In this document: positions 31,353-63,626 of the stretch, piece by piece | Numbering within the stretch: the first letter of the stretch is position 1 | Layout of the letters: each line of letters starts with the position of its first letter | DNA from: Escherichia phage P-GXEC-L2P5 | Length of the DNA stretch: 64,000 nt | Sequence record: PQ843332.1 | Reading direction: 5' to 3' (one strand) | Notes under the pieces: generated by a model | Database searches by the model: none | Told to the model about the DNA's origin: nothing | What the model saw: the letters and a program-made list of their open reading frames with translations, nothing else | Position numbers and translations under genes: made by a program

Positions 31353-31610
31353 ATCCTATTTTGAGTGTTTTTAGCTGGTCGCATTGGTTGCCGTGCAGTA
31401 TAAATATAGTGAATAGTTATGCAATAAAACTGCATAAAGTAAGCGGGACAAAAAGCGGGACAAACTTGGGGCGGGACAAAGCGGGACAGCACCCCCGTCC
31501 CGCCCCGGATGACGCGGCCTGGAGAGGAGCGGGACAGGCGGGACAACTCCCAGTCTTTCAGACTAGACGGGGGTCAGCGGCCCCCCTCGTCTGAGACTGC
31601 ATAAAATCCG
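31353..31610. repeat. non-coding repeat module R2, paralogue of R1
   Basis: aagcgggacaaaaagcgggacaaacttggggcgggacaaagcgggacagcacccccgtcccgcc is nearly identical to R1 226-290; same hairpin at about 31553-31607. Confidence 0.7.
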
Positions 31611-31753: not shown

Positions 31754-31794
31754 ATTGGTTGCATTCATGCCAGCACCCTGCTAGATTGGTTGCA
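31754..31794 (+). promoter_or_regulatory. two copies of ATTGGTTGCA upstream of gene 31816
   Basis: ATTGGTTGCA at 31754-31763 and AGATTGGTTGCACACCAACA at 31783-31802; identical extended 17-mer upstream of minus-strand gene start 43131. Confidence 0.45.
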
Positions 31795-31815
31795 CACCAA
31801 CATGAGGGCTGAACA

Positions 31816-40691: not shown

Positions 40692-42012
40692 TAATCAATA
40701 TATGGCGGATCGAATGATCCGCCGTCACATCTTCACCCAGCGCCTTAGCAATGACCAGGCGCGAAGGGTGCTGTCCATGTGGGAGAAGTTCCGGCCCACA
40801 TTACTGGGAAAGCTGACCGAGTTGCTTGATGGCAAATCGTCAATGAATAACAGGGCACTTTCCACCCTGCTAACGCAAATCGACAAGACCGTTAAATCAG
40901 AATTGCGCACCGAGTTTAAGGCGTTGGCTGAAAGCCTTCAGGAGTTCGCCGACACGGAGGCTGATTATCTCACCGACACATTAACGGCAGCGATCCAGCC
41001 GGTGGTGAAAGCCTTCAGGAGTTTGCCGACACGGAGGCTGATTATCTCACCGACACATTAACGGCAGCGATCCAGCCGGTGGTCGCTGTACCTGCGGTCG
41101 AGGTGGTTGGCGTAGTGACCGGTGCGCAGATCGCAGCGACGGCAATGAAAAACCCGTTTCAGGGCAATACCCTGATGCAATGGCCCGATTCACTTTCAGA
41201 ATGGACCAGGACGCAGATCGGCAATCAGGTGCGCGCGGGATTCATCCAGGGTAAGCCGACTTTGGAAATTATAGCGGACGTGAGGCGCGCGCTCGGCGGT
41301 CGTAGTGCGCAAGCTCTCTCAAGCGTTGTTAAGTCCGCAGTCAACCACTATGCGGCGACCGCCCGCGAACTAATGGTAAAAGCAAATGACGATATTCTCG
41401 AAGGTCGCCAACAGCAGTCAACCACTATGCGGCGACCGCCCGCGAACTAATGGTAAAAGCAAATGACGATATTCTCGAAGGTCGCCAATGGTTATCTACA
41501 TTGGACACGCATACTTCTCCCATGTGCCAGCTACGCGATCGCCTGTTTTATCCGGTTGATGTTACTCCCGACACCAAAGGAAAGCGCGGCGGGAAAATGG
41601 TGGCTGGGTCACAATATGGCGCTGGTCCGGGCAAGTTGCATTATTGCTGCCGGTCTACGGAGACGTGGAAGGTTAAAGGCATGGAAGATTGGCCCAGTGG
41701 TAAGCGGGCAAGTTGCATTATTGTTGCCGGTCTACGGAGACGTGGAAGGTTAAAGGCATGGAAGATTGGCCCAGTGGTAAGCGTCCGGCACTGAAGGCTG
41801 ACGCTGGTCGATTGCTGAGTGAGCAGGTCGACGCGCAGACTGATTTCTTCTCATGGGTGCAGCGCCAGCCGCGCCATATCCTGGAAGAATTATACGGAGT
41901 GCAACGCGCCGACCAGATTATGCGCGGCGTGAAAGTGCCGAAGATGTTCACCGATTCAGGCGAACTAATGACTATCGCACAGCTTAAAAACCGGGGGTTA
42001 TGGCGTGATTAA
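40678..42012 (+). CDS. head morphogenesis protein, Mu F / SPP1 gp7-like (frame broken by duplications near 40960-41080, 41340-41460 and 41640-41760)
   Basis: WLSTLDTHTSPMCQLRDRLFY signature region; position after portal. Confidence 0.6.
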
Positions 42013-42334
42013 ATATGCAGCGATTGGACTGATTATCGGTCTGGCGGTAGGATTCTGGCTAGGTGACTCCTATCGCACTGGCGTAGTGGCGGAGGCGGCG
42101 CAAGAAGCGCAAGCCCAAGCCCAACGGCAGCAAACTAAAGTTGTTGAGCGCTCCGTGCAGGCCGAACAAGCCCGCGACGTAGAATACCGGACTATCACGA
42201 AAGAGGTTGTTAAATATGTTACGCGCCCTAACCGCCCTGATTGTAGTTTTGATGCTGAGCGCGTGCGGATCAAGCAACGCGCCGTTGATGCCGCTAACGG
42301 AGTCGGCACTGCGACCGCCGTGCAAGTTCGATAA
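42005..42334 (+). CDS. Rz-like inner-membrane spanin candidate
   Basis: N-terminal TM helix IKYAAIGLIIGLAVGFWLG then Gln/Ala-rich coiled coil; embedded lipoprotein ORF in +1 frame. Confidence 0.45.
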   Translation: MIKYAAIGLIIGLAVGFWLGDSYRTGVVAEAAQEAQAQAQRQQTKVVERSVQAEQARDVEYRTITKEVVKYVTRPNRPDCSFDAERVRIKQRAVDAANGVGTATAVQVR

Positions 42335-42440
42335 CCCGTCTGCGGACCCCGACGAAGATTTGATGATTGATGTTAAAAATATGGAATGCGGGGGCCGTGC
42401 AAGTTCGATAGCCCGTCTGCGGACCCCGACGAAGATTTGA
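42207..42440 (+). CDS. Rz1-like outer-membrane lipoprotein spanin candidate, embedded in and extending past Rz-like gene (C-terminus affected by duplication near 42300-42440)
   Basis: Signal peptide MLNMLRALTALIVVLMLSACGSS with lipobox LSAC; Pro-rich mature part. Confidence 0.45.
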   Translation: MLNMLRALTALIVVLMLSACGSSNAPLMPLTESALRPPCKFDNPSADPDEDLMIDVKNMECGGRASSIARLRTPTKI

Positions 42441-42475
42441 TGATTGATGTTAAAAATATGGAATGCGGGGCGAAG

Positions 42476-42700
42476 CTAAGGGCGCAGGTGCTGGAGTTGC
42501 AGCAAATAATTAAGGGGCCGTAATGGCCCCTTTTTCGTTAGCGCGGCGAATGTGCGAATGCCGTCCGGCATACAGTCCAGCGTGATTGCGTACGCCAGAT
42601 CGCGTGAGTCCATCATGATTTGTTTGGCTTCGGTTGCGATTTCGTGGTCGCGCAGGATGTTAGCCAGGATCTGATGTTTAATATCTTTCGTCAGTCTCAT
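42476..42700 (-). CDS. hypothetical small protein on minus strand within head module
   Basis: 74 aa ORF; 3' end runs into the terminator hairpin, so true stop is uncertain. Confidence 0.3.
   Translation of the reverse strand: MRLTKDIKHQILANILRDHEIATEAKQIMMDSRDLAYAITLDCMPDGIRTFAALTKKGPLRPLNYLLQLQHLRP
42512..42537 (+). terminator. bidirectional rho-independent terminator (aaggggccgtaatggcccc + ttttt)
   Basis: Perfect GC stem with A-run before and T-run after. Confidence 0.6.
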
Positions 42701-42771
42701 TTTTGTGTCCTCATTATTGGGGCTTTCGCCCCGATTGGTTTAGTTAAATTTGATGTTGCCGCTGGTTGAGG

Positions 42772-43131
42772 TTAAGCGAGCACATACAGCTTCAACGGCA
42801 TCGACGCACATGAAATCGTTAAAGGCTTCGACCAGCCACCGGTGGAAGTTAAGCGGGCACATACAGCTTCAACGGCATCGACGCACATGAAATCGTTAAA
42901 GGCTTCGACCAGGGCGTTTATGAAAGATGCCGGAACCAGGCCGCAAGCCGGATTATCGAATATCGCGGAGTTGATCGCCGCTTTTGCCGCTTCAGAAGCA
43001 TTCATGCTCTGGCACAGATTCAGCGCTTCCGCGTTACGCATTGCGTGAAAGGTAAAGGTATTCGCTACGGTAGCTTTATTGAAACGGGCCATTGCGGCGT
43101 CTACTGGAGTTGCTACGGTCATGTTAGTCAT
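42772..43131 (-). CDS. hypothetical protein on minus strand (frame affected by diverged duplication near 42768-42912)
   Basis: Start ATG 43131 with AGGAAG RBS; ATTGGTTGCACACCAACA about 28 nt upstream. Confidence 0.35.
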   Translation of the reverse strand: MTNMTVATPVDAAMARFNKATVANTFTFHAMRNAEALNLCQSMNASEAAKAAINSAIFDNPACGLVPASFINALVEAFNDFMCVDAVEAVCARLTSTGGWSKPLTISCASMPLKLYVLA

Positions 43132-43348
43132 TTTGTCTTCCTTCATATCTCTGTTGGTGTGCAACCAATTCCAGCAGCGCAAGCGAATTTTGCGATTATT
43201 TTTATCACTGATAATATTAAGGCGTGAAGTCAAGCGGGTGGCCCGCTTTGCCACAATCAGCGAATTTTGCGATTATTTTTATCGCTGATAATATTAAGGC
43301 GTGAAGTCAAGCGGGTGGCCCGCTTTGCCACAATCCCAGGGGGATAGC

Positions 43349-44050
43349 ATGAAACTTACTAAAGCAGAATATGACGCGTTGCCAGAAGGCATGAAGGCTT
43401 TATTTGTTGCCGATGGCGATGGGTATAAATCCACGTTCATGACCGCCGAAGAAGTACAGGCGGAGATCAAGGGTCTGAAAGACAACAACGCGAAGCTGGT
43501 TAGCGAGAAGAAAGCAGAAGCCGAACGTCGCGCCGAAGCCGAGCGCCTTGCGAAAGAGAAAGAGGAAGCCGCCGCGCGCAAAAATGGCGACCTCGAAGCG
43601 ATCGATAAGTCCTGGAAAGATAAGTTCGCAAAACATGAAGCGGACACATCGGGGAAGATCGAAGCCTACCGCAAGCAGATCCACGACCTAACCATCGGCA
43701 GCGCTGCCAAAGATTTGGCCTCGAAGCTGTTCGGTAAGAATGCCGGCATCATGCAACGCCACGTTATGGACCGCCTCACGCTGGAAGACGGCGAGGACGG
43801 CAGCTTGAAGGTGCGGGTACTGAAGGACGGCAAACCCTCCGCGCTGACTATGGAAGAGCTAGAAAAAGAGTTCCGTAGTAACGCCGATTTTGCATCCGTC
43901 CTGGCTGGCACGCCAGCCGGTGGTGCTCCGAGCAAACCGACGCAGGTCGTCGAAGATGTGAAGTCGAAAATCACTATGGGACACAGCTTCGGTATCACTG
44001 ACTTGACGAAACAGGCCGGGGATATCATTGCTAAAATGGGCGACGAGTAA
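43349..44050 (+). CDS. scaffolding-like protein (coiled coil, upstream of major capsid gene)
   Basis: MKLTKAEYDALPEGMKALF then Lys/Glu/Ala-rich helix; GGGGGA RBS; position before capsid gene. Confidence 0.45.
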   Translation: MKLTKAEYDALPEGMKALFVADGDGYKSTFMTAEEVQAEIKGLKDNNAKLVSEKKAEAERRAEAERLAKEKEEAAARKNGDLEAIDKSWKDKFAKHEADTSGKIEAYRKQIHDLTIGSAAKDLASKLFGKNAGIMQRHVMDRLTLEDGEDGSLKVRVLKDGKPSALTMEELEKEFRSNADFASVLAGTPAGGAPSKPTQVVEDVKSKITMGHSFGITDLTKQAGDIIAKMGDE

Positions 44051-44147: not shown

Positions 44148-45325
44148 ATGTCTTTAACAGTGTTCCAGCGTAAACTCGTCACCGCGGTTACGCAAATGAT
44201 TCCCGATAACCTGAACGTGTTCAACGCTGCCGCTAACGGCGCTGTTGTTCTCGGTACGGGTGAAGTGCTTAAGGACGTTGTAGAAAAAATGTCCGTAGGC
44301 TTGATCGCCAACCTCGTTACCGACCGTAACGCCTATGCCCCTGTCGGTACACCGGCAACCGCAAAAGTGCTGGCGCGTATGCTGACCAACTCGGTTAACC
44401 TTTCCGCGAAAGTGGGTCCGGTTGCGATCACGAAGGCCATGATGGCTAAAATCGAAACCAACGTTAACAGCGTTGCGGCTGAGATTGCGGCACAGGCAAC
44501 TCAAGCGATTATGCTGCACTATCTGAAAGCTGGTATCGGCGCGGGTAAAGCGGCTATCGAAAGCAACACAGCGGCAAACTACACCCAACCGGCTCGCGTT
44601 GACGGCGTTGGCGGTCGTACATTCCCGACCCTGGCAGACTTCCCGCTGGCGGCTTCTAAGTTCGGCGATCAGGCGTCTTTGATTAAGTCCTGGTTTATGG
44701 ATGGCGTTACCTGGGCAAACTTCATCGCTTACCAGGCGCTTCCATCTGCCGAGCAGGTATTCGCGATCGGCGATCTGCAGGTAATGGGCGATGGTCTGGG
44801 CCGCCGTTTCATTATCTCCGATGCCGCTGCCGATGCAATGGGCGCGGGTAAAATGCTGGGTCTGGTCCCTGGCGCGGTTGCAGTTACCACCAACGGCCTT
44901 GATATGCTGGCGCAGGAGGCGCGGGTAAAATGCTGGGCCTGGTCCCTGGCGCGGTTGCAGTTACCACCAACGGCCTTGATATGCTGGCGCAGGAAAAAGG
45001 CGGTAACGAGAACATTGAGCGCTGGTGGCAGGGCGAGTTCGACTTCAACGTGGCTGTTAAAGGCTATCGTCTGAAGGCGTCCGCTCGTACTCCGATCGAA
45101 GGGGTACGCTCGTTCACGCTGTCCGATATCACCACTAAGGACAACTGGGAGCTGGATCAGGGCCAGGTAGACAACGCACCGGCAACCGTTCAGGACGTTG
45201 GTGCGGTGGGTGATGGCGATACTAAAGTCCGTCGTAAGACCCAGGCCGCACAGGCAGTGCCTACCCGTCACATCAAGGAAACGGCGGGCGTACTGGTTAC
45301 GCTGACTGCGACCACAGCGTCCTAA
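44148..45325 (+). CDS. major capsid protein candidate (frame broken by duplication near 44860-44995)
   Basis: About 365 aa after removing duplicate; position after scaffold, followed by strong terminator. Confidence 0.5.
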
Positions 45326-49432: not shown

Positions 49433-49893
49433 GGAGCGGGACAGGCGGGACGTCCCGTTTTGTCCCGCCACCACTAAACCGCATATATACTCACTTTCAT
49501 TGCATAAATTAAAAGCGGGACAGGGGTGCTGTCCCGCTTTGTCCCGCCCCCAAAATGTGAATATCTATTCGATTTTCGTGCATAAAACAAACGGGACAAA
49601 AAGCGGGACAGAATTGGGCGGGACAAAGCGGGACAGCACCCCTGTCCCCGCCAGTGCTGCCGCGGGTTTTAGCCGATCGGGACAGGCGGGACAAAGCCCA
49701 GTCTTTCAGACTAGACGGGGGGTCTGTCACCCCCCTCGTCTGAGACTGAATAAGGTTTGTTTTAAATTCGCTGATACAATGACCGACGGCAACTGCATAA
49801 AAAGGGCCCCCCTCGTCTGAGACTGAATAAGGTTTGTTTTAAATTCGCTGATACAATGACCGACGGCAACTGCATAAAAAGGGGGACTGCATA
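49433..49893. repeat. non-coding repeat module R3, second-copy counterpart of R1
   Basis: Same GCGGGACA arrays, inverted pair GCGGGACAGGGGTGCTGTCCCGC, hairpin and TGCATAAA boxes; ORFs called here are spurious. Confidence 0.7.
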
Positions 49894-52800
49894 ATGGCAG
49901 ATCAGGCAGCGGGCATCACGCTCAAGGCGGACGTCGCGCAAATTAAAACGGCGAATACTGTGCTGGACACATTTGCGCAGAAATCCGAGAACACAGAACA
50001 GAAAGTCAAAAAATTAAACGACACCCTCGGCAAGTCGAAAAAGGTCACTGGCGACGCCGCGGGCGGAATGGAAAAGTTAGCGACTGAATCGCAGCGCGCC
50101 GCCGACGGCATGACGAAACAGGAGCGACTAGCCAGCCGATTAGGCATGTCGACCAAGAACCTGGGATTCGCATCGCCGCCGACGGCATGACGAAACAGGA
50201 GCGACTCGCCAGCCGATTAGGCATGTCGACCAAAAACCTGGGATTCGCATCGCGGAACGCCGCATTCCAGTTACAGGATATCGCGGTTACGCTTGAGATG
50301 GGTATGCCGGTGCACCGCGTCATGCTTCAGCAGCTACCGCAGCTTACTGGGGCGTTTGGCGGACTGGGAAACACGCTGCATTATGTCGTCGGCACACTCG
50401 GCCCGTTAGGGATTGGCATCGCTGCATTAACGGCAACGCTCGGCGTAGGGGTGGCAATTACGACCCGCGCAGAGAACCAGGTGGCGGCGCTTAATAAGAC
50501 GCTGGCGCTGTCCGGTAATATTTCAGGCCTGACAGCTAACCAGATCCTTGTGCTGTCCGAGAACGCCGAGCGCATGGGCGGGTCATTTCGCAAGACGCGT
50601 GACACAATCCAGGCGCTGGCGGCGGCGGGTGTGAAAGCGGGTGGTGACTTTGGCGCATTGGCTAAGGTAGTGAATGACTTTGCGAAGGTGTCCAGCCAGC
50701 CGATCGAGGATGTGGTGGCGGCGGTGGCGAAGCTGTCAAGAAGGTAGTGAATGACTTCGCGAAGGTGTCCAGCCAGCCGATCGAGGATGTGGTAGCGGCG
50801 GTGGCGAAGCTGTCAACCGACCCCGTTGGCGGACTGCGTGCGCTGGCGGATAAGTATCACGTCGTAAACGAAGCGCAGATCCAGCAGGTACAGTCGCTCG
50901 TTGATGCGGGTCGTGAGACAGACGCAGTTGCGTTGGCTAACAAAACAGCCGCTGCGTCGTTCACCAGCATGACCAATGAGATCAAGGCGAACATGGGTAC
51001 GCTTGAGCGATCTATGAACGTCGTCACATCGGCAGCCAAATCAATGTGGGACGCTATCCTGGATGTGGGTCGCGCGCAGTCCTCCAATGAGTCCGAGATG
51101 AAAGCGCGCGAATCACTCCAGCGCATGACCACGGCTTACTATGCCGAGATGAAAGCGGTAAACGCTGCCGGTGGGGTAATGACTGAAGCGCACTGCAGCG
51201 GCTGACCACGGCTTACTATGCCGAGATGAAAGCGGTAAACGCTGCCGGTGGGGTAATGACTGAAGCGCAGAAAGCACGTATTAACATGCTTTACAGCGAA
51301 CTGGTCGCCCAGGAAAAAGTGGTGGCGTCGCTCACCCTGCGTAACCGTGCGGAGCGAGACAACGCCCGCGCCGCAGATGAATCCGCAAAGGCGAACGAGG
51401 AGGCCAACCGCACCGCCCGCGACCGCGCCGCGTTTGAAAAGGAGTACGCAACTAACGCGAAGAAGCGCGCCGACGAGATCGCCCGCCTCAATTTGCTGAA
51501 TAAGCGCGGCGTTATTGATGAGAAAGAGCTTGCCGAGGCGGTTAAGCAGGTAAACGAGCGTTACAAAGACCCGGCCCCGAAGAAGGCCGCGGCTGTTCGC
51601 GTGGATGCCGGTATGAAAATGCTGGAAGTCGCACGGAGCGAACTGGCCCAGCTCCGAAAAAGGCCGCGGCTGTTCGCGTGGATGCCGGTATGAAAATGCT
51701 GGAAGTCGCACGGAGCGAACTGGCCCAGCTTCGAGAATCCGGCAAGCAGATCGAAGCCAACGCGTCTACGCAGACCCGCACGCAACGCGCGCAAGCGGCC
51801 TTAAACAAGCTGATCGCCGACAATGAGCAGTTAATCGCCGCAAGCAAAGAAAGAGCGCTAACGGCAGCCGAAAAGCAGCAATTAGTCGAGTTCGGGCGCG
51901 TGAAGGAAGTCCGCGAGCAGATCGTCGAAGAAGCCAAATTGCTGGACGCGAAAGAGAAGCAGGTTAAGGCGCACGCGCAGATCGATGCCTTCGTTAAGAA
52001 CCAGAACGCCGAACTATGCTGGATGCGAAAGAGCAGCAGGTTAAGGCGCACGCGCAGATCGATGCCTTCGTTAAGAACCAGAACGCCGAACTAAAAGCCA
52101 CCGCCGCGGGGTATGCGCTTTCCACTCGCGAAGCGGCAAACCTGCGCGAAGAATTGCAGCTAATCGACCGCCTGAAGCGTGTAGGCGCTAACGATACCGA
52201 TATTGACAAGGCGGTGTCTAAGCTGCGAGAATGCAGCTAATTGACCGCCTGAAGCGGGTTGGCGCTAACGATACCGATATTGATAAGGCGGTGTCTAAGC
52301 TGCGAGAAGTGCAGGAAGCACAGACCGGCGCTAACGCCTCGTTATGGGATGGATTCAGTCGCGGGCTTAAGGATAGCGTGGATGAAATGGGTAACGGATA
52401 TACGCAGATGGCGTCTCTCACGAAATTCACATTCAGCGCTATGCAGGACACGATGAACGAGTTTTTCGAGACTGGCAAGCTGAACGCAAAGGATATGGTT
52501 AAGTCCATCCTGAGCGAATTAATCAAGCTGGCTACCTCGCAGGCGTTCAAGTCCATCGTTAGCGCTTTCGGTGGCGACGGCGGCAAAAACGGATTGTTCG
52601 GCGCTATCTTCTCGGGCCTCACCAAGAATGCGGACGGCGGAGCGTACGTGGCGACGGCGGCAAAAACGGATTGTTCGGCGCTATCTTCTCGGGCCTCACT
52701 AAGAATGCGGACGGCGGAGCGTACACCGGAGGCAATCTCGCGGCCTATTCGGGGCAAGTGGTGAGCCAGCCTACCTTTTTCAGTTATGGCGTCCAGGCGT

Positions 52801-53152
52801 TCGCTAAGGGCGCTGGGTTGATGGGTGAGGCTGGACCCGAGGCCATCATGCCGCTGAAGCGCGGGCCGGACGGGAAACTGGGCGTTGCCGCGTCTGGCGC
52901 AGGCGGTGGTATGGTCGTGACGACTAACGTTTACACGGGGACCGGTAAAACGGATACCAGTGTGCCGCGTCTGGCGCAGGCGGTGGTATGGTCGTGACGA
53001 CTAACGTTTACACGGGGACCGGTAAGACGGATACCAGTGTCAGCGGGCCGGATCCCCGTACCGCGCAGGCGTTCGGCAAGCAAATCACCGAGGCGGTGAA
53101 GGCCGAGATCGTGAAGGCGACGAAACCGGGTGGTGTACTTTACAAACGATGA
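49894..53152 (+). CDS. tail length tape measure protein, second copy (fragmented by tandem duplications)
   Basis: ORFs 49894-50190 through 52671-52997 are collinear with 605-3401 at about 95% aa identity. Confidence 0.7.
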
Positions 53153-53186
53153 TAAAATGGCCCTCACTACAACGTGGGGGCTTTTT

Positions 53187-54017
53187 ATGTCACAAGGTAC
53201 AATCACACTAACGAAAGGAAGTAAGACCGTCACGGGCGCGGGAACGGCGTTCCTTAGCGAGATCGGGAAGGTACTCGTATTCGCCCGCATCGACGGCAAC
53301 GACTACACCGGCAAAATTGCGGCATTCAACTCGAACACGGTCATTACTCTGAAAGATAACTGGGCCGGGACGGCAACGACTACACCGGCAAAATTGCGGC
53401 ATTCAACTCGAACACGGTCATTACTCTGAAAGATAACTGGGCTGGGCCGACGAAATCCGGTGCGGCATATGAGCTAATCGAAGCACACGACCCGCGATCA
53501 AACGAATGGCCCTATTACTGGCACATGCAATTGCAAGGCGGCGGAGTGAGCTAATCGAAGCACACGACCCGCGATCAAACGAATGGCCATATTACTGGCA
53601 CATGCAATTGCAGGGCGGTGGCGACGTGCAGTTAGCTTTCCGGTCGGAGGAATTGCAATTCGGTAACGGTTACGGACAGAACATCGCGGACGGCCCGAAC
53701 GCCGAAACGAAACAGTTCCCCGTGCAATTCGTCGGGCTGACTACGGACAAATGGTGCGCATCGCGGACGGCCCGAACGCCGAAACGAAACAGTTCCCCGT
53801 GCAATTCGTCGGGCTGACTACGGACAAATGGTGCAATCCTAAACTGGTTTACAACTTCCTTCGCGGTCACTTCGTAAAACCGTTTGTCGTCACAGCACCA
53901 GATGGCGAAACAGGTTTATTCGTGGTCGAGCGTTCGAGCTTGTCGTACACGGACAACGGGCACTACACGGCAACGGTATCCGCCACCCTTAAGACTGCTA
54001 TTGGATTCGTAAGATGA
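53187..54017 (+). CDS. minor tail protein, gpM-like, second copy (frame broken by duplications near 53330-53430, 53470-53620 and 53690-53840)
   Basis: Collinear with 3436-4112. Confidence 0.5.
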
Positions 54018-54879
54018 ATAAACTTTATCGCGAGGCGACGCGCTTTGACCCATCGGGCCGCGTTCGCCTGATTCACATTGACGCGCAGGACGTGGAACCA
54101 GGCGACGGCGCGATCGGAGCGGGCCATCACTATTTTCATTACTGCTTCATTCCGCTGACGCGCAGGACGTGGAACCCGGAGACGGCGCGATCGGCGCGGG
54201 CCACCACTATTTTCATTACTGCTTTATCCCACACACTGCGGAGGATATCGCTGCCGCGGGTGGTGACGAGGATAAGCTAAAACCTAAATCAATCTTCTTC
54301 GGCGGGCAGGAGTTCGAATTTTGGCCCTTCGATTTGTCCGGCCTTAACTTTTCCACATCGACGGCAGCAGAACCGCAACTAACAATCGTCGATATTGGCG
54401 GCATAATAACCCGGCTGTCACTGAATCACGACCAGCTACTGGGCGCGAAGGTTGAAATAATCGACACATTCGCGAAGTTCCTGGATAACGGGTCGGACCC
54501 AGACCCGACGCAGAAACGAGTGCAGGAGTATTACATCGACTCGCAGGTCGGGCGCAATCCAGGCAAGCAAATCACCTTCGCACTATCCTCCCCCGCGGAT
54601 ATGGAAGGGCAGGTCGTTCCCCGTCGCCAGATCATGAACATGTGCGAATGGGCGCTCAACGGGAAGTACGCCAGCGGGGACGGTTGCACATGGAACCTTG
54701 CACAGCCTGGAATAAAGTATTACGACGAGCGAGGTAATGAAGTCATCGCAATGAATATGGACCGATGCGGCGGCTGTTTGTCCGACTGCTATCTTCGTTT
54801 TGGGCAAGGGCTTGCGGATCCTAAAGCTGCGGTGCTGGACTTCGGTGGTTTTCCTGGGTCCAAATTAATCAAGGGGTAG
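54014..54879 (+). CDS. minor tail protein, gpL-like, second copy (frame broken by duplication near 54090-54200)
   Basis: Collinear with 4109-4897. Confidence 0.7.
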
Positions 54880-54881
54880 CC

Positions 54882-55622
54882 ATGTTAACGAAAAAGGTTA
54901 AAAGCGATATCGCCGCGCACGTTGCGGCATGTCTGCCTGAAGAAGCCTGTGGCCTTGTTGTCATGGTGGGCCGCAAACAAGTATTTGTCCCGTGCATGAA
55001 CGTATTCGAAGACCCGACCGGCGTGCGCTCACGCAGAGACGCATTCACGATTAGTGATATGGCCTGGATGGATGCCGAGGATATGGGCGACGTCGTGCGA
55101 GTAGTCCACTCGCATCCAGGCCAGCGAGAGCTTACACCCTCACTTGGCGACGTTAACGGATGCAACGGCAGCGGCGTAGTCTGGACCATCACTAACGAAT
55201 ATGGCGACTTTATCGAGATCGACCCTGAAGACCCGCCGCTGGTAGGCCGCCGATTTGTTCTCGGAATTACAGATTGTTATGGCCTCGTCATGGACTGGCA
55301 CAAAAAGCAGGGTGTAAACCTGCCAGACTTCCGCGTGCCGTATAACTGGTGGGAGACAGGCGAAAATCTGTATATGGATAATTGGTACGGTGCTGGCTTC
55401 AGGGAATGCGAGGAGAATACGCCGGGGGCAATGGTCATCATGCAGATTAGCGCGCCTGTGCCTAACCACGCTGGGATATTCCTTCCGGGCAACCAACTAC
55501 TACACCATATCTACGGCAGCCTGTCGAGCGTGATTCCCTTCCGGTCAGGATTTTTCCGGGACAATGTGGTTAAATGGGTACGTCATAAAGACCTACCGGG
55601 GAATATAACAGAATGGCAATGA
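54882..55622 (+). CDS. tail assembly protein, gpK-like, second copy
   Basis: Intact 246 aa ORF; about 11 substitutions relative to 4900-5640. Confidence 0.8.
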   Translation: MLTKKVKSDIAAHVAACLPEEACGLVVMVGRKQVFVPCMNVFEDPTGVRSRRDAFTISDMAWMDAEDMGDVVRVVHSHPGQRELTPSLGDVNGCNGSGVVWTITNEYGDFIEIDPEDPPLVGRRFVLGITDCYGLVMDWHKKQGVNLPDFRVPYNWWETGENLYMDNWYGAGFRECEENTPGAMVIMQISAPVPNHAGIFLPGNQLLHHIYGSLSSVIPFRSGFFRDNVVKWVRHKDLPGNITEWQ

Positions 55623-56384
55623 CCACATTTAAATTATACGGCGTTTTAGGACGTCGATTCGGTAAAGTGCATAAGCTGGACTGCTTCACTCCGGGCGAGG
55701 GTATCACCGGCCTGTGCGTGAAGTTACCCGGCTTACAGGACTTTCTAATGTCGGCCCACCTGGACAATATGATGTTCAAGGTGCGCAAAGGCGACCACAC
55801 GATGACCGGCTATGATGAGCTGGGCGAGTTCCACGGCAACCGCGTATGATGTTCAAGGTGCGCAAAGGCGACCACACGATGACCGGCTATGATGAGCTGG
55901 GTGAGTTCCACGGCAACCGCGTCGTTACCATCGCGCCGGTTATGACGGGCGCAAAAAGAGGGTTGGGACAATTGCTGGCGGGTGTCGCGATCGTAGTGGC
56001 GTCGTTCTATACGGGCGGACTTGCTACTGCCGCTTTCGGGGCTTCGGCTGCAACCGCTGCCGCTATCGGGACGGCGACGTTTTCGTTCGGGATGTCGATG
56101 GCGCTGGGTGGCGTTATGCAATTGCTGTCGCCACAACCGAAAGGATTGCAGACAAGGCAGGACGTGGATAACAAAGCGTCGTACGCGTTCGGCGGGCCTT
56201 GCTGTCGCCACAACCGAAAGGATTGCAGACAAGGCAGGACGTGGATAACAAAGCGTCGTATGCGTTCGGAGGCCCAGTAAACACTACCGCGCAAGGCACG
56301 GCGCTTGGTGTATTATGGGGCGAGCGTGAGATCGGCGGCGCTATTATTTCAGCCGGAATCGTAACCGAGGACTTGAACGAATGA
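55613..56384 (+). CDS. tail assembly protein, gpI-like, second copy (frame broken by duplications near 55790-55880 and 56150-56260)
   Basis: Collinear with 5631-6248. Confidence 0.6.
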
Positions 56385-59300
56385 CGATTATCTACGACGT
56401 CACAGGGCATAAAGGCGGCGGCGGCAAACAGCACACCCCGCAGGAGACGCCCGATAGCCTGCATTCGCTGGCTAAAATCCGCATCTTGCTTGCGCTGGGG
56501 GAAGGGGAATTCGAAAGTATTACCAGCGCCAGCGAATTGCGGCAGCGTGTATATCTGGACGGAACACCGATCCAGAACGCGGACTTGTCCGAAAACTTCC
56601 CCGGCGCGCGTGTGGAGTTCCGCCCCGGAACACAGCACCAGGATGTGATCCACGGATTTTCAGCGGTGGAAAGTGAGCAATCTGTCGGCGTAAAACTGGA
56701 AAACGGCACGCCGTGGGTGCGCCAGATTAACGACACCAGCTTGGACGCCGTGCGCATTCGCATCGGCATTCCGGCACTGTACACAAACGAAGATAATGGC
56801 GACCTGGTGGGCGGGCGCATCGACTATAAGATCGTTGTGTATACGGATAACGCCGACCCGCGTGAGTTCAGATTCGCCGCCGTTGGTAAAACAATGTCGA
56901 CTATAAGATCGTTGTGTATACGGATAACGCCGACCCGCGTGAGTTCAGATTCGCCGCCGTTGGTAAAACAATGTCGCTGTATGAGCGCGACCACCGCATA
57001 GAATTACCTCCGAACGTTAACACCGGCTGGCGCGTGGAGGTGCACCGCATAACGGCAGACTCCACATCGGCGAAAGTGGTTAATGATATCCGGGTGCAGT
57101 CCATCACTGAGATTATTGACGCCCGCCTGCGTTACCCGCTAACCGCGCTGTTGTTTGTGGAGTTCGACGCCAAAGCGTTCCAGAACATCCCGCGCGTGCC
57201 CGCCTGCGTTACCCGCTAACCGCGCTGTTGTTTGTGGAGTTCGACGCCAAAGCGTTCCAGAACATCCCGCGCGTGTCCATCAAGTGCAAAGGCCGCAAAG
57301 TTCTAATACCGAACAACTACGACCCGATCAATCATACCTATGCCGGGTACTGGGACGGCACGTTTAAACGCGCATGGACGGATAACCCTGCGTGGCACTG
57401 GTACGATATTTGTATTACTGAGCGCTTCGGCCTCGGTCGGCGTATCAAACCGCAAATGCTAAACCGATACGCGCTCTGTACGATATTTGTATTACTGAGC
57501 GCTTCGGCCTCGGTCGGCGTATCAAACCGCAAATGTTAAACCGGTACGCGCTCTACCAGATTGCGCAGCGCTGCGATCAGTTGGTCAGCGACGGCAACGG
57601 TGGTCGAGAAATCCGCTTTAAGAATGATATGTACATTCAGTCACAGACGGATGCCTGGACCGTGCTTAAGGATTTAGCCGCCATCTTCGCTGGGATGACC
57701 TGGTGGGGAAACCAAATGTTGAATATCGTCAGTGACCAACCGGTCGCAGCAGTGTCGCACACTATCACCAACGCCTCGGTTATTGATGGCCGATTCGACT
57801 ACGCATCAGTGACCAACCGGTCGCAGCAGTGTCGCACACTATCACCAACGCCTCGGTTATTGATGGTCGATTCGACTACGCGTCCGGTAGCCAGAAAACT
57901 CGGTATTCCACATTCGCGGTAGCATACGGCAACCCGAAGAACCACTATGAAGATGCCATCGCAACGGGGCAACGTGTCGAACTGGTACGCCGCCATAAGA
58001 TTAACCGTCTTGATATAACGGCGATCGGCTGTACGCGTGAGTCAGAAGCGCAACGACGTGGGCACTGGGCGCTAATCTCCAACCAGCTTGACCAGCAAGT
58101 TAGCTTTAAGGTGGGCATGGAGGGACTTTTCTTTATTCCTGGTAGCGTAGTCGCGATCGCCGATACAAACATTTCTGGCGGCTTCGAGACACGCGGCGGT
58201 CGCCTGTTGTCGGACCCTGGCACGCGTACCGTGCTTAACACGGACAGCGAAATCACATTCCGCCCAGGTGATAAATTCCTGGTACGCACCGATAGTGGTA
58301 ATGTAGAGACTCGCGAGATCGCCAGCGTCAACGGCAACAAGGTTACGCTAAAAACCGCACTGGACGCCGACCCGATTCCTGATCAGCCGTTTTGCGTCGA
58401 TGGCAACGATATCCAGTTGCAGAAGTTCCGCATCACCGACCTGGAATATGACGACTCTACGAGCACTTTCTCGGTGCGCGGGATTGAATACAACGATAGC
58501 AAGTATGATGCCGTTGATAATGGCGCTCGCCTTGATCCTGGTATCTTCACGCAAGTGCCCGACGGGGTAATGAAGGGGCCGGAATCCGTGACCATCACCC
58601 CGTCGCAGATTTCATCGCAAGGACAGCTAATCACCAACGTGGATATTGTTTTCGGCCGGAATCCGTGACCATCACCCCGTCGCAGATTTCATCGCAAGGA
58701 CAGCTAATCACCAACGTGGATATTGTATTCCCTCCGGTGAAGGATGCCGTGGTGTATGAAATCCAGTGGAGGCGTACCAGCCTTCAGAATATGGAAATCC
58801 AGTGGGGTAACGACTGGGTGAATATCCCACGCACGGCGTCGAACGGCGCGCACATCCCTAACGTGTTCTCCGGTAACTACCAGGCACGCGTCCGCGCGAT
58901 CGGTATGGGCGAGATTTCATCTCCGTGGGTGTCGTCCGCCATCACGCCGGTGGAAGGTCGTCTCGGTGGGCTTAACGCACCAATCATCACCAACGCTATT
59001 TCGGGCCTTCACCAGATCTTGTGGAAGTGGAACCACAACAACGCCGCTACTGATATCTCGTACACCGAGCTTGAAGTGCGCAAGACCGGTGAGACTGAAT
59101 GGAAATTCCTTACCAACGTCCCATATCCGGGGGCGGAGTATGCGCAAACATCGCTGGAGTTCGGAATTTACCAGCAGTTGCGCGCCCGTGTAGCGGATAA
59201 AATCGGCAACCTGTCGGACTGGTCGGCCCCGTTTGAAGGGCAGGTGAGTGACAAAGTTGACGAGTACATGAAGGGGCTTGATGACGAGTTCTTGACTTCC

Positions 59301-60339
59301 GAGGATGGTAAACGCTTCCAGGAAGCAATCAAGTTGACGAGTACATGAAGGGGCTTGATGACGAGTTCTTGACTTCCGAGGATGGTAAACACTTCCAGGA
59401 AGCTATTAACACGATCCCGCAAGGCATTTATGAGTCAATGCTCACCGACGCCCAGCAGCTATTCAACGCCCGCGCCGAGTACAAAGGGATTTATGCGGAA
59501 ATCAAGGTCGCGTATAACGTGGCGGCGGACGCCCACAAGGCGGTCGCTCAACTGGAGACGTTGATCGGCACGCGACTTGATGACGCGGAAGCTGCGATCC
59601 ACACGTTGCAGACGGCGCAGACGCTCAACTGGAGACGTTGATCGGCACGCGACTTGATGACGCGGAAGCTGCGATCCGCACGTTGCAGACCGCGCAGAGC
59701 ACACAGGAACAAGCGTTCGCCCAGTACCAGCAAACTGTTGCCGCTAAGTTCGGGGAACAGGAAGCCGCCATCCAGCAGGTACAAACGGCAACCGCAGACG
59801 TGGCGGGAGCGCTGGCGGAATATAAGACCCAGGTCGCTACACAGTTCGGTCAGCAGTCCGCCGCTATCGAGCAGAAGATGACGTCCTCGTTTAACCACTC
59901 TGGTGGTAGCGCCACGTATAGCCTTAAGGCTGGCGTGACATATAACGGGACTTATTATGATGCGGGTATGCAGCTCTCCGTCGTGACGTCTGGCAACGCG
60001 GTTAAATCGCGTATTGCGTTCAAGGCGGACCAGTTCTACATCATGCATCCGTCCAATGGGACGCTGTCGTCTGCGTTTATTGTGGACGGTGGCGCGGTGT
60101 ATATCGACACGGCACGCATCAAGAACGCGTCCATCAACTTCGCGCAGATAACAGACACGCTGCAATCGAATAACTACGACGGCAGCACGCGCGGCTGGCG
60201 CTTAGGGAAAGATGGAACGTTTATCAACCTGGGCACCGGTAGCGGCGGCGGGATGAAACAGACGAACACAAGAATCAGCGTGAAGGACGGAAACGGCGTT
60301 CTCCGCGTGCAGATTGGTGAGCTTACTGGTAGCTGGTAG
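56381..60339 (+). CDS. host specificity protein, gpJ-like, second copy with divergent C-terminal domain (fragmented by at least seven duplications)
   Basis: N-terminal about 1,000 aa collinear with 6322-9826; extra repeat block and a different last ~60 aa. Confidence 0.75.
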
Positions 60340-60375
60340 TATAGGGGCTTCGGCCCCTTTTTAACGAGGTTATTT

Positions 60376-60678
60376 ATGGCATTCGGTATCGCAACGTGGG
60401 ACGCGCAAGGACGCCCAAACAACTACGGCATTAAACCGGTAAGCGTGATCGGAAGGATTCATCTTGCGGAAGGACAAAAATCAGGCGCATGGTCATTCCC
60501 TGTACCGGCGGGGATGAAGGTCGGATACGTGGTCGCACTGGATAAAGGCGCGGTCGGGCCAGGACGCAGAATATCTGCCAGCGGGAACACTATCACGGTT
60601 TCCGCGGCAAGTGCAGTAGGTGGCGGGGTTTACTCCGCATCTGAATGTGACGTTATTGTTTTTGTGGAGCGAGCATAA
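60376..60678 (+). CDS. hypothetical protein specific to second copy
   Basis: Intact 100 aa ORF replacing the minus-strand cassette found after gpJ in copy 1. Confidence 0.4.
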   Translation: MAFGIATWDAQGRPNNYGIKPVSVIGRIHLAEGQKSGAWSFPVPAGMKVGYVVALDKGAVGPGRRISASGNTITVSAASAVGGGVYSASECDVIVFVERA

Positions 60679-61429
60679 TGGCTAATTACGGCGCGTTGAT
60701 TGACTTACCAAACGGCAACCCGTTTATCACGCCAGAATCGACGCCGTTTTGTCTCTTCCGCCGTGTGGTTGTTGGGTCTTCGGCTAACGGCACTGCGCAG
60801 TCGGCGGCTGCCGATATTAATTTGGGTGGTGACTACCCTGCAATAGCGTTTGTTAAAACTACGCACACCGCCCAGCCGACCGTCGTAGGGTCTTCTCGCG
60901 TTGGTAATGTGGTGAAGGTGAGCGCCAGCAATCCATTCGGGCAGGGCTTCACGATGACGGCTTACATCTTTGCTATATTCCCACAGACCCTTCCGCGGTG
61001 GGGCTTCGCTATTTGGGATAAGACGGGGAAGCTAGTGCTTACTAATGAGAGTCGCGTACTAAGTCCCTTCCGCGGTGGGGCTTCGCTATTTGGGATAAGA
61101 CGGGGAAGCTAGTGCTTACTAATGAGAGTCGCGTACTGAGCGATTTAGTTACCGTCGGGTCGCCTGGCGCTAACGGGGGGATTAACATTGATCAGACGCT
61201 AAACGGCAGCTACGCCGTCGCACCGGGAATATTGGGGTCTACGCTGATCCGGTTTTTTGTGCAGGGCCAGCCGCAGGTAATATCGGTAACGGCGTACACG
61301 GGGGCCAGATTTGATGGGTCGCGAACTCGTATATCGGCAGCGTCGTCGGGGAACGCCACGGGGGATGTGGTGGGGTATACTAACAACGGCAACGCGATTA
61401 TGGCGATTAACACTGCCAATTATGATTGA
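60678..61429 (+). CDS. hypothetical protein specific to second copy (duplication near 61030-61130)
   Basis: ORFs 60678-61112 and 61112-61429; ATGA-type overlap with upstream gene. Confidence 0.4.
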
Positions 61430-61430
61430 A

Positions 61431-61456
61431 GAAAGCCCCGAAAGGGGCTTATTTGC
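61431..61456 (+). terminator. bidirectional rho-independent terminator (aaagccccgaaaggggctt)
   Basis: Perfect stem between convergent genes. Confidence 0.55.
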
Positions 61457-61667
61457 AGGTTGTGCTTTTGAAATGGTCTACAGACACGTACTGGAAGCTA
61501 AACGGATAACCCGCCCTTAGCATTTTATGCCCGGAGAAGTCCGCAACACCATACACAGGTACCGCATAATCCATGCCGCTATTCTGGTATGTGGCGTCGC
61601 AGACTTTAGCGGGCATGTTGGCACAACCGGACAAAAGAACCGCACAAATCATAATTAAAGTTTTCAT
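61449..61667 (-). CDS. small lipoprotein, second-copy variant with unrelated mature domain
   Basis: Same signal peptide MKTLIMICAVLLSGC as 10821-11042; mature part ANMPAKVCDATYQNSG... is unrelated. Confidence 0.5.
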   Translation of the reverse strand: MKTLIMICAVLLSGCANMPAKVCDATYQNSGMDYAVPVYGVADFSGHKMLRAGYPFSFQYVSVDHFKSTTCK

Positions 61668-61747
61668 GGTATCATCTCCTATATTTGGTCGAGTTTCAGT
61701 ATTACACCGCTCAACCAGGATTGCAACCAATTTATGAGGATTTAGCT

Positions 61748-63526
61748 ATGGCAGCGGGCACACTATCCGTAACGAATAACAGCAAGGCGGTTGTAGGGGT
61801 CGGCACAACGTTTACCTCGTTTAACGCTGGCGACTTCTTAACGCTGGTGGTAGGACAAGTCCCCTACACCGTAGCAATCGCGTCCATTGAAAGCGAAACC
61901 GCGCTTACGCTGGTGTTGCCGTTCGACGGCCCAACGGCAACCGGCCTCGCGTGGGATGGCGTTAAGCGCGATACCATGTCACTGGCGACGATGGGTGTAA
62001 CCGTACAGGCACAGAAAGCATTGCGCTTGATGATTGCAGATGAAAACAACTGGCGTGCAATCTTCGGCGACGCTGAAGAAATCACCGTGACGCTGCCTAA
62101 CGGGCAGGTAATGCAGGGTATGTCATGGGGCTACCTGTCGCAGTTGATGAAACAGATCGACCCCGTTGAGATGCTAAACCTGCAACAACAAGCCGCCGCA
62201 TCGGAAGCAGCCGCGCAAGGATACCGCGACCAGGCCGAAGGCATTAAAACCGAGACGGCAGGCATCCGCGACGACACCAGGTTGATTAATGCTGATACGC
62301 TGGCGATCCGCAACGACACCGATGCCATCAGGACGAATACCAACCAGATTAAATCAGATACGCAGGCCATTAAGGACCAGACGAACCAGATCAAGACGGA
62401 CACCGGCGTTATTCGCGACGAAGCCAATACCGCGAAGACGGACGCGCAATCCGCCCGCGATGCTGCGCTGGGATACCGGAACGAGGCCGAACAGTTCAAG
62501 AATGAGATCGACCCGTCGAAACTTCTGGCAAAGGCCAACAACCTTAGCGACGTTGCCGACCCCGCGGCAGCGCGCGACCACTTAGGCATCGGGCCTGACG
62601 ACACCCTTAACCTTGGTGGCCTGGTAACGTCCGGCAGTATCTCCGCGGGCCGCAACACATGGGATGGGTCTAACTGGGGGAGCCAGGGACTTCTCGCCTC
62701 ATTAGTGGTCCTATACCCGGACGGAAGCTCAGCCCCAGGCTTATACGTGCGAAAATCCAACGGCGACAGCGGATATGCGGCGGGATGGTTGTATAACGAG
62801 AACAGTATCAGTTGGGCTACTAACGCGCGTATTGCGGGCTTTCAGTTCCGGTCCCCTAAAGGCGCGATGGGGTATAACCAGCTATGGTCAGAGGCTGTGG
62901 TGCGTGCGGACGACTTCATGGCACAGAATGGCGCGGAAAACTATAAGTCGTTAATCGCGGGGGCCGCTACAACGCAAGGTCACGGATACTCGGGCGGTGT
63001 CTCGTTCGGGATAATGACAACTGGCATAAACAACTGGCCCCGGGCGCAGATCTCGATCGGCACAGCAGACCGTGACGCCGCTGGGAATATGGCTTCGCAG
63101 ATGCACTTCCGCTTTAATGAATATGGGCAGATTTCTTACACAGGGCCACTGGGGACGGGGTCGTTCCAGCAAGTACCTGCGTCGGATCGCAACCTGAAGC
63201 ATGACATTGCCGATGACGCAAGCAGCACCGCCTACGACAATATCAAGGCTTTGCGGTTCCGCACGTTCGTATTCAACAACGATGAACAGGAACGGCAGCG
63301 TCGCGGTATTATTGCGCAGGAAGCGGAAGAAATCGACCCGCTGTATGTGAAGCACCGCGTGTATAACAATCACGAATTAAATGGGCCTCTGGTGCACCAG
63401 CTTGAACTGGATACGACACCGCTGTTACTCGACACTATGCGAGCGTTGCAGGATACGATTAAGCAGGTGGAGGATTTGAAGGCGGAGATCGCAGCGATGA
63501 AGCAGGCGGAAGAGTTGAAGAAATAA
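61748..63526 (+). CDS. tail fibre protein, second copy, with different distal domain and same type of C-terminal chaperone
   Basis: N-terminal about 300 aa collinear with 11123-12901; distal domain non-homologous; C-terminal ...RRGIIAQEAEEIDPLYVK...DLKAEIAAMKQAEELKK. Confidence 0.7.
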   Translation: MAAGTLSVTNNSKAVVGVGTTFTSFNAGDFLTLVVGQVPYTVAIASIESETALTLVLPFDGPTATGLAWDGVKRDTMSLATMGVTVQAQKALRLMIADENNWRAIFGDAEEITVTLPNGQVMQGMSWGYLSQLMKQIDPVEMLNLQQQAAASEAAAQGYRDQAEGIKTETAGIRDDTRLINADTLAIRNDTDAIRTNTNQIKSDTQAIKDQTNQIKTDTGVIRDEANTAKTDAQSARDAALGYRNEAEQFKNEIDPSKLLAKANNLSDVADPAAARDHLGIGPDDTLNLGGLVTSGSISAGRNTWDGSNWGSQGLLASLVVLYPDGSSAPGLYVRKSNGDSGYAAGWLYNENSISWATNARIAGFQFRSPKGAMGYNQLWSEAVVRADDFMAQNGAENYKSLIAGAATTQGHGYSGGVSFGIMTTGINNWPRAQISIGTADRDAAGNMASQMHFRFNEYGQISYTGPLGTGSFQQVPASDRNLKHDIADDASSTAYDNIKALRFRTFVFNNDEQERQRRGIIAQEAEEIDPLYVKHRVYNNHELNGPLVHQLELDTTPLLLDTMRALQDTIKQVEDLKAEIAAMKQAEELKK

Positions 63527-63528
63527 GA

Positions 63529-63555: not shown

Positions 63556-63626
63556 TGAGTTTTCCCAGTCCATTTTGCGCCGCACCAGCGGGCTTTCGTA
63601 ATATTCCTTCCCCTCCACTTCCATTT

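Follow-up and report, generated by a model that had tools for sequence, protein, structure and literature searches.

The two minus-strand ORFs studied here very probably belong to an accessory-gene slot of the genus Dhillonvirus, set between two plus-strand units and carrying, in the lineage of phage JL1, a dead nmad5 gene and a damaged promoter-like element next to one intact gene for a 104-aa orphan protein. The window, i.e., the whole stretch of 64,000 nucleotides from Escherichia phage P-GXEC-L2P5 (PQ843332.1) that was analysed, does contain these two ORFs (42476–42700 and 42772–43131) amid plus-strand head genes, at about the positions given by an earlier sequence-only reading. Their length alone is no evidence of function, since antisense ORFs of 60–200 aa are common in the window, and it is homology that identifies both as genes of relatives—the former being JL1 gp57 and the latter matching JL1 gp56. 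In related phages, a sigma-70-like element would read leftward (TTGCAx, a 17–18 nt spacer, TATATT and the leader GGTTGCACACCAACA) into one or two interchangeable cargo genes, and the unit would stop at a hairpin that is also used from the opposite side. In the JL1-lineage state, the first cargo gene is intact, the second, nmad5, was inactivated by a 602-bp deletion between 8-bp direct repeats, which left 54 codons reading into the terminator, and a 14-bp deletion between two ATTGGTTGC repeats took the putative −10 element. The independent accessory unit envisaged by the sequence-only reading is thus recognisable in the genus, where the locus is framed and variable, but not in the window, where the unit is degenerate.

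To place the locus, the 3-kb stretch around it was compared with phage genomes. A total of 158 phage records matched, nearly all of them E. coli siphophages of the genus Dhillonvirus, with JL1 at 99.0% and SSL-2009a at 97.7% identity as the best matches. The window represents a JL1-like Dhillonvirus, its genome being interspersed with 82 tandem duplications of 77 bp that are artefacts and that the JL1 genome (NC_019419.2 / JX865427.2) lacks. Window and JL1 have both deletions (602 bp and 14 bp) and the flanking genes in common, and the annotations of JL1 and SSL-2009a show the same layout at the locus; nevertheless, they are not the same phage, the identity outside the head region being only 83–92%. 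Tandem Repeats Finder returned some 85 two-copy arrays in the window, every one with a period of 77, and our own scan counted 82 duplications at this period and none at periods of 60, 70, 75, 76, 78, 79, 80, 90 or 100. When the window was aligned with JL1, every segment began again exactly 77 bp back (in JL1 coordinates), with both coding and non-coding DNA affected. Since 77 is not divisible by 3, the duplications frameshift essential genes, e.g., the major head protein gene (44841–44994). In the two duplications whose copies were compared (at 42317 and 43182), the differences between copies fall on sites that also vary among relatives, with the JL1/SSL-2009a allele in one copy and, at 43182, the HK578/SECphi18 allele in the other. 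We take the window to be an assembly path through a mixed population of Dhillonvirus phages with 77-bp overlaps left untrimmed, and its collapsed length of 57.7 kb—about 1.3 genome lengths—indicates that it wraps around the genome. Such a sequence is not readable at face value, as the 82 untrimmed overlaps frameshift most genes and produce false ORF ends and false promoter matches. Given this mixed-strain path, the linkage of the 602-bp and 14-bp deletions on one molecule is deduced from JL1. The features of the locus, together with the duplications that touch it, are compiled in Table 1.

Table 1. Features of the accessory slot and its surroundings (window coordinates).
Feature	Position	Strand	Basis or remark
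nmad5 5′ stump, codons 1–54 of 254	42539..42700	−	PF18757; alignment with SSL-2009a gp07; identity with JL1 gp57
Read-through tail, 20 codons + stop	42476..42538	−	Not nmad5 sequence
Deletion junction, single TAGCGCGG left	42539..42546		SSL-2009a has two copies 602 bp apart
104-aa orphan gene (JL1 gp56 / SSL-2009a gp08, phrog_24635)	42740..43131	−	Interrupted by artefactual duplicate
Bidirectional intrinsic-terminator hairpin AAGGGGCC-GTAAT-GGCCCCTT	42512..42532		Putative
GGGGC-GAAA-GCCCC hairpin	42716..42735	−	Separates the two genes; 3′ edge of the 104-aa cassette; −11.5 kcal/mol, z −3.0
AAGCGGG-TGG-CCCGCTT hairpin	43232..43248	+	Scaffold-gene leader; z −1.0
17-mer ATTGGTTGCACACCAACA	43152..43169	−	In relatives, 3′ part of the 21-mer TATATTGGTTGCACACCAACA (putative −10 element + leader)
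14-bp deletion site (ATTGGTTGCGCTAT missing between 43169 and 43170) and displaced −35-like TTGCGC (43177–43182)	43169..43182	−	Alignment
Sister promoter-like element: ATTGG-TTGCAT (−35, 31759–31764), 17-nt spacer, TAGATT (31782–31787)	31754..31802	+	Overlaps the second 17-mer
Candidate divergent scaffold/capsid promoter TTGCGA, 16-nt spacer, TGA-TAATAT	43190..43217	+	By eye only; below scan threshold
Duplication in spanin genes	42317-42470		Artefact touching the locus
Duplication inside the 104-aa gene	42758-42911 (42758-42834 / 42835-42911)		Artefact; 72/77 bases identical
Duplication in intergenic region	43182-43335 (second copy 43259-43335)		Artefact

The presence or absence of the ORFs in relatives, a check proposed by the sequence-only reading, revealed a polymorphic cargo, with at least six slot states among close relatives. 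The first gene of the slot is nmad5 in L011, L022, L028, SECphi18 and Kenya-K19, the 104-aa gene in L012, L014, L026 and SSL-2009a, an unrelated 140-aa gene (as HK578 gp06) in L019, L025 and L027, and a 170-aa beta-clamp-like gene in L010, L020 and L023; the cargo consists of nmad5 alone, the 104-aa gene followed by nmad5, the 140-aa gene or the clamp-like gene. The surroundings of the slot are formed by the lysis/terminase/portal/head-morphogenesis/spanin unit on the left and the scaffold/capsid unit, from 43349, on the right. The G+C content of the genome is 0.548 and that of the flanking genes 0.53–0.56, as compared with 0.488 for the 104-aa gene, 0.444 for HK578 gp06 and 0.472 for the clamp-like gene; nmad5, at 0.535, does not deviate. 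The same comparison bore on ORF conservation, with a divided outcome—the 104-aa gene is conserved, but the truncated allele of nmad5 recurs only in JL1.

Of the two limits assigned to the longer ORF, the start at 43131 was right and the end at 42772 was a product of the duplication: once 42758–42911 is collapsed, the true stop falls at 42740, and the gene measures 315 bp and encodes 104 aa instead of the 119 aa read in the window, where the frameshift swaps the true C-terminus ...RLTSTSGNIKFN for 22 spurious residues. The ATG at 43131 carries the Shine–Dalgarno sequence AAGGAAG and is where public-data gene callers begin the protein; the JL1 annotation starts gp56 at ATG 43146, hence 109 aa. 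As HK578 gp06, an unrelated gene, sits behind the same leader ATGAAGGAAAACAA(A/G)ATG, the ATG at 43146 is probably part of the leader sequence. A single residue separates the collapsed 104-aa ORF from JL1 gp56 and SSL-2009a gp08, and the ORF matches phrog_24635 (function unknown) over its full length (positions 1–109 of 109, E 1.4e-71). This family is narrow, with ten clusters at 90% identity in a set of 5.8 billion and four representatives in one of 1.84 billion proteins. Its alignment has 41 invariant columns at identities down to 58%, and unsaturated Dhillonvirus pairs have dN/dS values of 0.07–0.11—evidence from which the ORF is judged a real and intact gene under purifying selection.

Some 60 Dhillonvirus records contain the 104-aa gene. 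Homologues with 59–64% identity were found in the Dibbivirus Pantoea phage AAM37 and in myophages of roughly 150 kb, of which ZQ1 was inspected (classified in Ackermannviridae); further homologues, 60% and 74% identical, come from two metagenomic phage contigs, where they neighbour primase/helicase genes or a gene for DNA ligase. We considered an obligate pairing of the gene with nmad5 and rejected it, because nmad5 is absent from the neighbourhoods examined (the stretches of L003, L004, AAM37 and ZQ1), in which the homologues lie amid replication or small early-type genes. The best AlphaFold2 model of the protein displays a helical bundle with a C-terminal beta-hairpin (pLDDT 84.7, the other four models being poor); a search with it returned no informative structural neighbour and no fold match, and the defence models of PADLOC gave no match. 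Identity with anti-Tmn was likewise rejected, since anti-Tmn is ORF35, at a different Dhillonvirus locus according to the papers. Our best guess is that the protein acts as an early-expressed host-interaction or counter-defence factor, and its gene is the sole candidate phage–host interaction gene in the slot of this window.

Upstream of this gene lies a 17-mer that occurs exactly twice in the window (31785–31802 on the plus strand and 43152–43169 on the minus strand), with 0.03 copies expected and none of 100 shuffles reaching two. Both copies are oriented towards the downstream gene. The sequence-only reading had described the motif as lying upstream of start 43131 exactly as upstream of gene 31816; it does precede both starts, but the distance from its end to the ATG is 20 nt in the former case and 13 nt in the latter. 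The observation is otherwise correct and general, since in relatives the 21-mer TATATTGGTTGCACACCAACA is found twice per genome, before gene 31816 and before the slot, where any of four alternative first genes follows it. In IMG/VR, this 21-mer was present in 19 stretches from 12 contigs, seven of which carry two copies; paired copies within one stretch lie on opposite strands, about 10.8 kb apart, one before the slot and the other before the small gene that opens the long lysis/terminase/portal unit (gene 31816 in the window, the first of its long plus-strand unit, with the sister element of Table 1 in front). The two copies of the 17-mer would thus represent sister promoter-like elements, the transcripts of which would converge on the bidirectional terminator.

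The core 9-mer ATTGGTTGC is 17-fold over-represented (13 copies against 0.75 expected), and in JL1, which is free of artefacts, most copies are intergenic, just upstream of genes and in the same orientation, preceding, for example, a Lar-like gene, gp32, gp36, the gp39 lipoprotein, gp17, gp15, gp14 and gp56. At several sites, the TTGCAx of the decamer is placed 17 nt from TATATT, TATAGT or TAATAC, and an intergenic alignment of seven phages displays, in five of the seven, TTGCA(A/T/C) or TTGCGC, a 17–18 nt spacer and TATATT, followed by GGTTGCACACCAACA. On the strength of this conservation, we infer that the slot element is a promoter. A consensus promoter scan picked up only the SECphi18 version, TTGCAA-17-TATATT (9 of 12 bases), a single match being the chance expectation, and called no promoter at the slot element in JL1; another scan match, at 43248–43276, was discarded as an artefact spanning a duplication junction. 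A sigma-54 promoter, considered because the motif contains TTGCA, was rejected by eye, as GG lies 3–4 nt from GC and not about 12 nt.

In both the window and JL1, a 14-bp stretch between two ATTGGTTGC-containing decamer repeats is deleted, and the TATA of the putative −10 element TATATT is lost. Since this deletion removed the putative −10 element, independent transcription is less likely in the window than in relatives, and transcription of the slot would be reduced in the JL1 lineage. The slot unit may still be expressed, either from an unrecognised element or by read-through, given that the intact 104-aa gene hardly differs from its SSL-2009a counterpart; the literature yielded no transcriptome or proteome data for the locus, nor transcripts of any Dhillonvirus. 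A different reading of the same motif is that the ATTGGTTGCA decamers, including the 17-mer, serve as operators of a phage-encoded DNA-binding regulator—instead of or besides a core promoter—in which case the 14-bp deletion would alter regulation without abolishing transcription. Copies of ATTGGTTGC are indeed often paired, at spacings of 14, 17 or 31 bp or as an inverted pair, the 17-mer contains TTGGT-N5-ACCAA, and, as it forms no stable RNA hairpin (−3 kcal/mol, z about 0), it probably acts at the DNA level. However, the variable spacing speaks against one cooperative dimer, no regulator has been identified, and the promoter reading already explains why TTGCAx lies exactly 17 nt from a good −10 (TATATT, TATAGT) in several sites; we regard a role as operators as possible, albeit rather unlikely.

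Turning to the second cargo gene, the ORF at 42476–42700 encodes a 74-aa sequence that does not differ from JL1 gp57. It scores 54.5 bits (E 2.1e-14) against the Pfam family Nmad5 (PF18757), the gathering threshold of which is 27 bits. The match is limited to positions 1–56 of the 206 in the profile, and codons 1–54 align with residues 1–54 of SSL-2009a gp07, a 254-aa protein encoded at the same position and matching the whole profile (E 6.7e-62). The rest of nmad5 was removed by the 602-bp deletion between two copies of TAGCGCGG (2385–2392 and 2987–2994 in the SSL-2009a locus, L002); the stop codon of the gene sat in the left repeat and is now out of frame, and the tail of the ORF reads TKKGPLRPLNYLLQLQHLRP, which comes from translating the terminator hairpin and the 3′ end of the o-spanin gene in antisense. 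Residues 55–254, including the invariant K216, are deleted in the window, and the full-length domain, with its conserved C-terminal block (T213, K216, L217, W221-P222-E223 ... TLNxxCGxP), is gone from the ORF. With these residues missing and only profile positions 1–56 covered, what is left is a gene fragment and not a functional Nmad5 member; by alignment, we classify it as a pseudogene stump of the accessory gene nmad5, so that, of the two accessory genes originally proposed, the 104-aa gene alone stands. The contiguous deletion junction was detected in JL1 alone among 50,697 phage records, with no match in IMG/VR. Ksap1, the Dhillonvirus trigger of KpAvs2, which also has 74 aa, was considered as an identity for the stump and rejected, for it sits elsewhere, between methyltransferase and phosphatase genes.

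The hairpin of the bidirectional terminator postulated at this end of the locus was borne out. The hairpin at 42512–42532 is strong on both strands (folding at −18.6 and, on the minus strand, −19.2 kcal/mol, with z of −2.2 and −3.6), it is kept in JL1, SSL-2009a, HK578 and SECphi18, and in the HK578 record this site is annotated as a terminator for both strands. The o-spanin stop codon (42521–42523) falls within the loop; on the plus strand the stem is followed by UUUUUCG, and on the minus strand by AAUUAUUU, a weak U-tract. SECphi18 has GGGGGCC...GGCCCCC in place of the AAGGGGCC...GGCCCCTT of the window, which looks like a compensatory change within the stem. The plus-strand lysis/terminase/portal/head-morphogenesis/spanin unit would end at this hairpin, as would, in relatives, the slot unit on the minus strand. 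It does not bracket the genes as had been suggested: owing to the 602-bp deletion, it now lies inside the ORF at 42476–42700, formerly having followed the gene. The hairpin near 43240–43260, regarded as the opposite boundary, fared no better, since the stem at 43232–43248 lies on the upstream side of the minus-strand unit, lacks a T-tract and folds no more stably than shuffled sequences do, and its second copy at about 43310 is a duplication artefact. A third hairpin, between the two genes (42716–42735), has no minus-strand U-tract and is missing from phages that carry only nmad5. An Rfam search of 41900–43600 gave a single chance-level match.

These results bear on the idea of two intact accessory genes that are transcribed independently and lie between two terminators. 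While JL1 annotates both ORFs as genes and the genus uses the locus as a variable accessory slot, the shorter ORF covers only positions 1–56 of the 206-position Nmad5 profile and ends in an antisense terminator, one terminator lies within that ORF, the second hairpin lacks a T-tract and lies outside the unit, and the putative −10 element is deleted; we therefore consider this idea very unlikely. A pseudogene stump beside an intact 104-aa gene, as preferred here, would agree with how nmad5 has fared elsewhere. The full-length gene occurs in about 145 phage records, but it has been truncated independently in different phages—at residue 54 in JL1, about 33 in Teewinot and about 170 in SM_S24—and metagenomic variants include one with an internal deletion that keeps the frame (P0014), one in which the 104-aa gene is fused to the nmad5 C-terminus (P0010) and a frameshifted copy (P0016).

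Still less credible is that the 74-aa stump has become a neo-functional small protein that retains the N-terminal helical hairpin of Nmad5, e.g., as a decoy for a defence sensor. The Shine–Dalgarno sequence and start codon are kept, residues 1–42, predicted as two helices, are the part of the Nmad5 model with the highest local confidence (pLDDT 76–84), and JL1 and the window share the allele. Yet Nmad5 as a whole is modelled poorly (pLDDT 56), the tail owes its sequence to chance, the allele has turned up, apart from the window, only in JL1, and other lineages cut nmad5 elsewhere (the points being 33, 41, 54 and about 170 residues), which points to random loss and not to a selected product. 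Finally, the suggestion that the nmad5 and 14-bp deletions are themselves assembly artefacts, the real phage having the SSL-2009a arrangement, is the most improbable of all, for although the window clearly has assembly artefacts and mixes alleles of different strains, both deletions recur base for base in the independently deposited JL1 genome, and the segment boundaries (42394, 42835 and 43259) do not coincide with the junctions (42539–42546 and 43169/43170), which marks the 602-bp deletion as biological.

Both ORFs are already in GenBank as JL1 gp56 and gp57, and nmad5 of Dhillonvirus was already studied in 2025; the finding is real but ordinary, and would not surprise a phage genomicist. 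What novelty is left lies in the function of the 104-aa protein, the exchange of slot cargo and the decamer motif. On a more speculative note, the gap between the spanin terminator and the scaffold promoter might be a dedicated cargo-exchange site, with the invariant 21-mer promoter/leader TATATTGGTTGCACACCAACA and the terminator as fixed anchors for swapped host-interaction genes; the 104-aa orphan (also found in Dibbivirus, Ackermannviridae and a possible Z-genome phage) might be an undescribed counter-defence or host-takeover factor; and the repeated nmad5 truncations might be adaptive escapes from an Nmad5-sensing host system. We advance this combination tentatively, deeming it improbable as a whole. 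In any case, the slot offers a compact, promoter-framed place to seek new phage–host interaction genes.

The nmad5 stump can be compared directly with its full-length counterparts. Escape of Dhillonvirus from Tmn maps to nmad5 (K216E/K296E, with K216E in the 254-aa form), deletion of the gene leaves the phage viable and does not abolish Tmn sensitivity, and cloning failed, apparently owing to toxicity (Yamashita et al. 2025, PMC11846954); the residue K216 is invariant in the Nmad5 alignment. The nmad5 genes of PhiSMS22 (CDS6) and PhiSMA8 (CDS7) in that study, along with SSL-2009a gp07, share with the window the locus ('near the capsid gene'), the orientation and the first 54 residues, whereas they retain the full length of 254 aa (the PhiSMS22 annotation makes the protein longer) and the window lacks residues 55–254. 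The locus complements the Tmn-escape result of 2025 as natural evidence that nmad5 is dispensable and repeatedly lost. The Nmad5 proteins of Pseudomonas phages M6 and SN1 (PMC9476957), the source of the name 'nucleotide modification associated', belong to the same Pfam family and are encoded beside aGPT-Pplase, kinase, radical-SAM and PLP enzymes in a thymidine-hypermodification cassette. No such cassette appears in the JL1 annotation, which has just two DNA methyltransferases far from the slot, the neighbours of which are head and lysis genes. In tblastn searches, similarity to Pseudomonas-phage homologues was confined to the C-terminus (30–40% identity over about 85 residues), and a PDB sequence search with Nmad5 returned chance-level lipoyl-domain matches only. 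The label 'DNA modification enzyme' stems from inference on gene neighbourhoods in other phages (such as M6 and SN1), and work by Iyer et al. in 2013 is said to be a further basis for it.

Finally, the locus resembles a class of elements familiar from lambdoid phages. Morons, reportedly described in 2000 by Juhala et al. and Hendrix et al., are said to be additional genes that sit within late operons and bring a promoter and a terminator of their own. By analogy, we regard the locus as a moron-like variable accessory slot that appears to be decaying in this lineage. Lambdoid morons and the slot have in common a small unit with a promoter-like element and a terminator placed between structural-gene units, polymorphism of presence and cargo among close relatives, and a G+C content below that of the surroundings. 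The terminator of the slot is the shared hairpin at 42512–42532, with its weak minus-strand U-tract, and the promoter of its own would be TTGCAx-17/18-TATATT in relatives, the −10 of which is deleted in the window and JL1. In contrast to lambdoid morons, the slot resides in a virulent and not a temperate phage, it is antisense to the flanking genes, with which it shares a bidirectional terminator, and its promoter-like element is conserved as the cargo changes—although damaged in the window.

Throughout the window we found two-copy tandem duplications (n = 82) with a period of exactly 77 bp and between 0 and 7 mismatches separating the copies; none was detected in the whole window at nine other periods tested. 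In JL1 coordinates, each segment of the window begins again 77 bp back, and the duplications have the appearance of k=77 assembly overlaps left untrimmed, with a mixed-strain sample as their source. Their effect is considerable, as most genes are frameshifted and both false ORFs and false promoter hits arise. The duplication at 42317-42470, for instance, splits the embedded o-spanin gene, whose stop codon is contained in the loop of the terminator hairpin bordering the accessory slot. The window also wraps around the genome (1-14300 vs 49650-64000), such that the unit at 2897-3051 is found again at 52571-52724. Once the duplicates are merged, 57.7 kb remain vs about 44 kb in relatives. The match to JL1 forms a mosaic, with 97% identity across the head region and 83-92% over the rest.

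Coordinates of the features discussed (examples only for the 77-bp duplications)
Feature	Sequence	Position	Remark
Embedded o-spanin	Window	42207-42523	Lipobox (LSAC); overlap with i-spanin gene
77-bp duplications	Window	1222-1372; 42317-42470; 44841-44994	
Decamer ATTGGTTGC(A)	Window	11098, 14364, 16336, 16353, 19680, 28242, 31383, 31664, 31754, 31785, 32340, 43161, 61723	
GCGGGACA-type motif and hairpin	Window	69-234; 296-570; about 31440-31600; 49730-49883	
Truncated nmad5	L031 (phage SM_S24)	1231-1785	
Truncated nmad5	L007 (Teewinot)	about 1470-1610	
Adenylosuccinate-synthetase-like protein	L004	344-2287	
HD/YfbR-like phosphohydrolase	L004	5001-5309	

Copies of the decamer ATTGGTTGC(A) are 17 times as frequent in the window as expected, and most have a gene directly downstream, in the orientation of the decamer itself. 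Pairing is frequent, at 14, 17 or 31 bp or as an inverted pair (14364). The decamer corresponds to the -35 region in a family of promoters or else to a site for a putative phage regulator. Separately, repeated GCGGGACA-type motifs, accompanied by a shared hairpin (CAGACTAGACGGGGGTCA..GGCCCCCCTCGTCTGAGACTG), occupy two genome positions, one directly upstream of the promoter-like element at 31754; these could be packaging or regulatory repeats.

Regarding the cargo of the slot, independent 3' truncations of nmad5, both running into the terminator, were found in two further isolates, SM_S24 (among the phages used in a study of the host defence system Tmn, PMC11846954) and Teewinot. These truncations suggest that nmad5 is deletion-prone or counter-selected. 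In some Dhillonviruses (L010, 2609-3121; also WF5505 and 101114BS4), the slot is occupied by a 170-aa protein that resembles, though below threshold, the central domain of the DNA polymerase III beta clamp. The RusA-like label that PHROGs gives its family (phrog_3007) is apparently a misannotation. Finally, a homologue of the 104-aa gene (74% identical) was identified on a 47-kb phage contig, L004 (Logan SRR23967305), whose adenylosuccinate-synthetase-like and HD/YfbR-like genes form a pair reminiscent of PurZ/DatZ phages, in which the genome carries 2-aminoadenine (Z).
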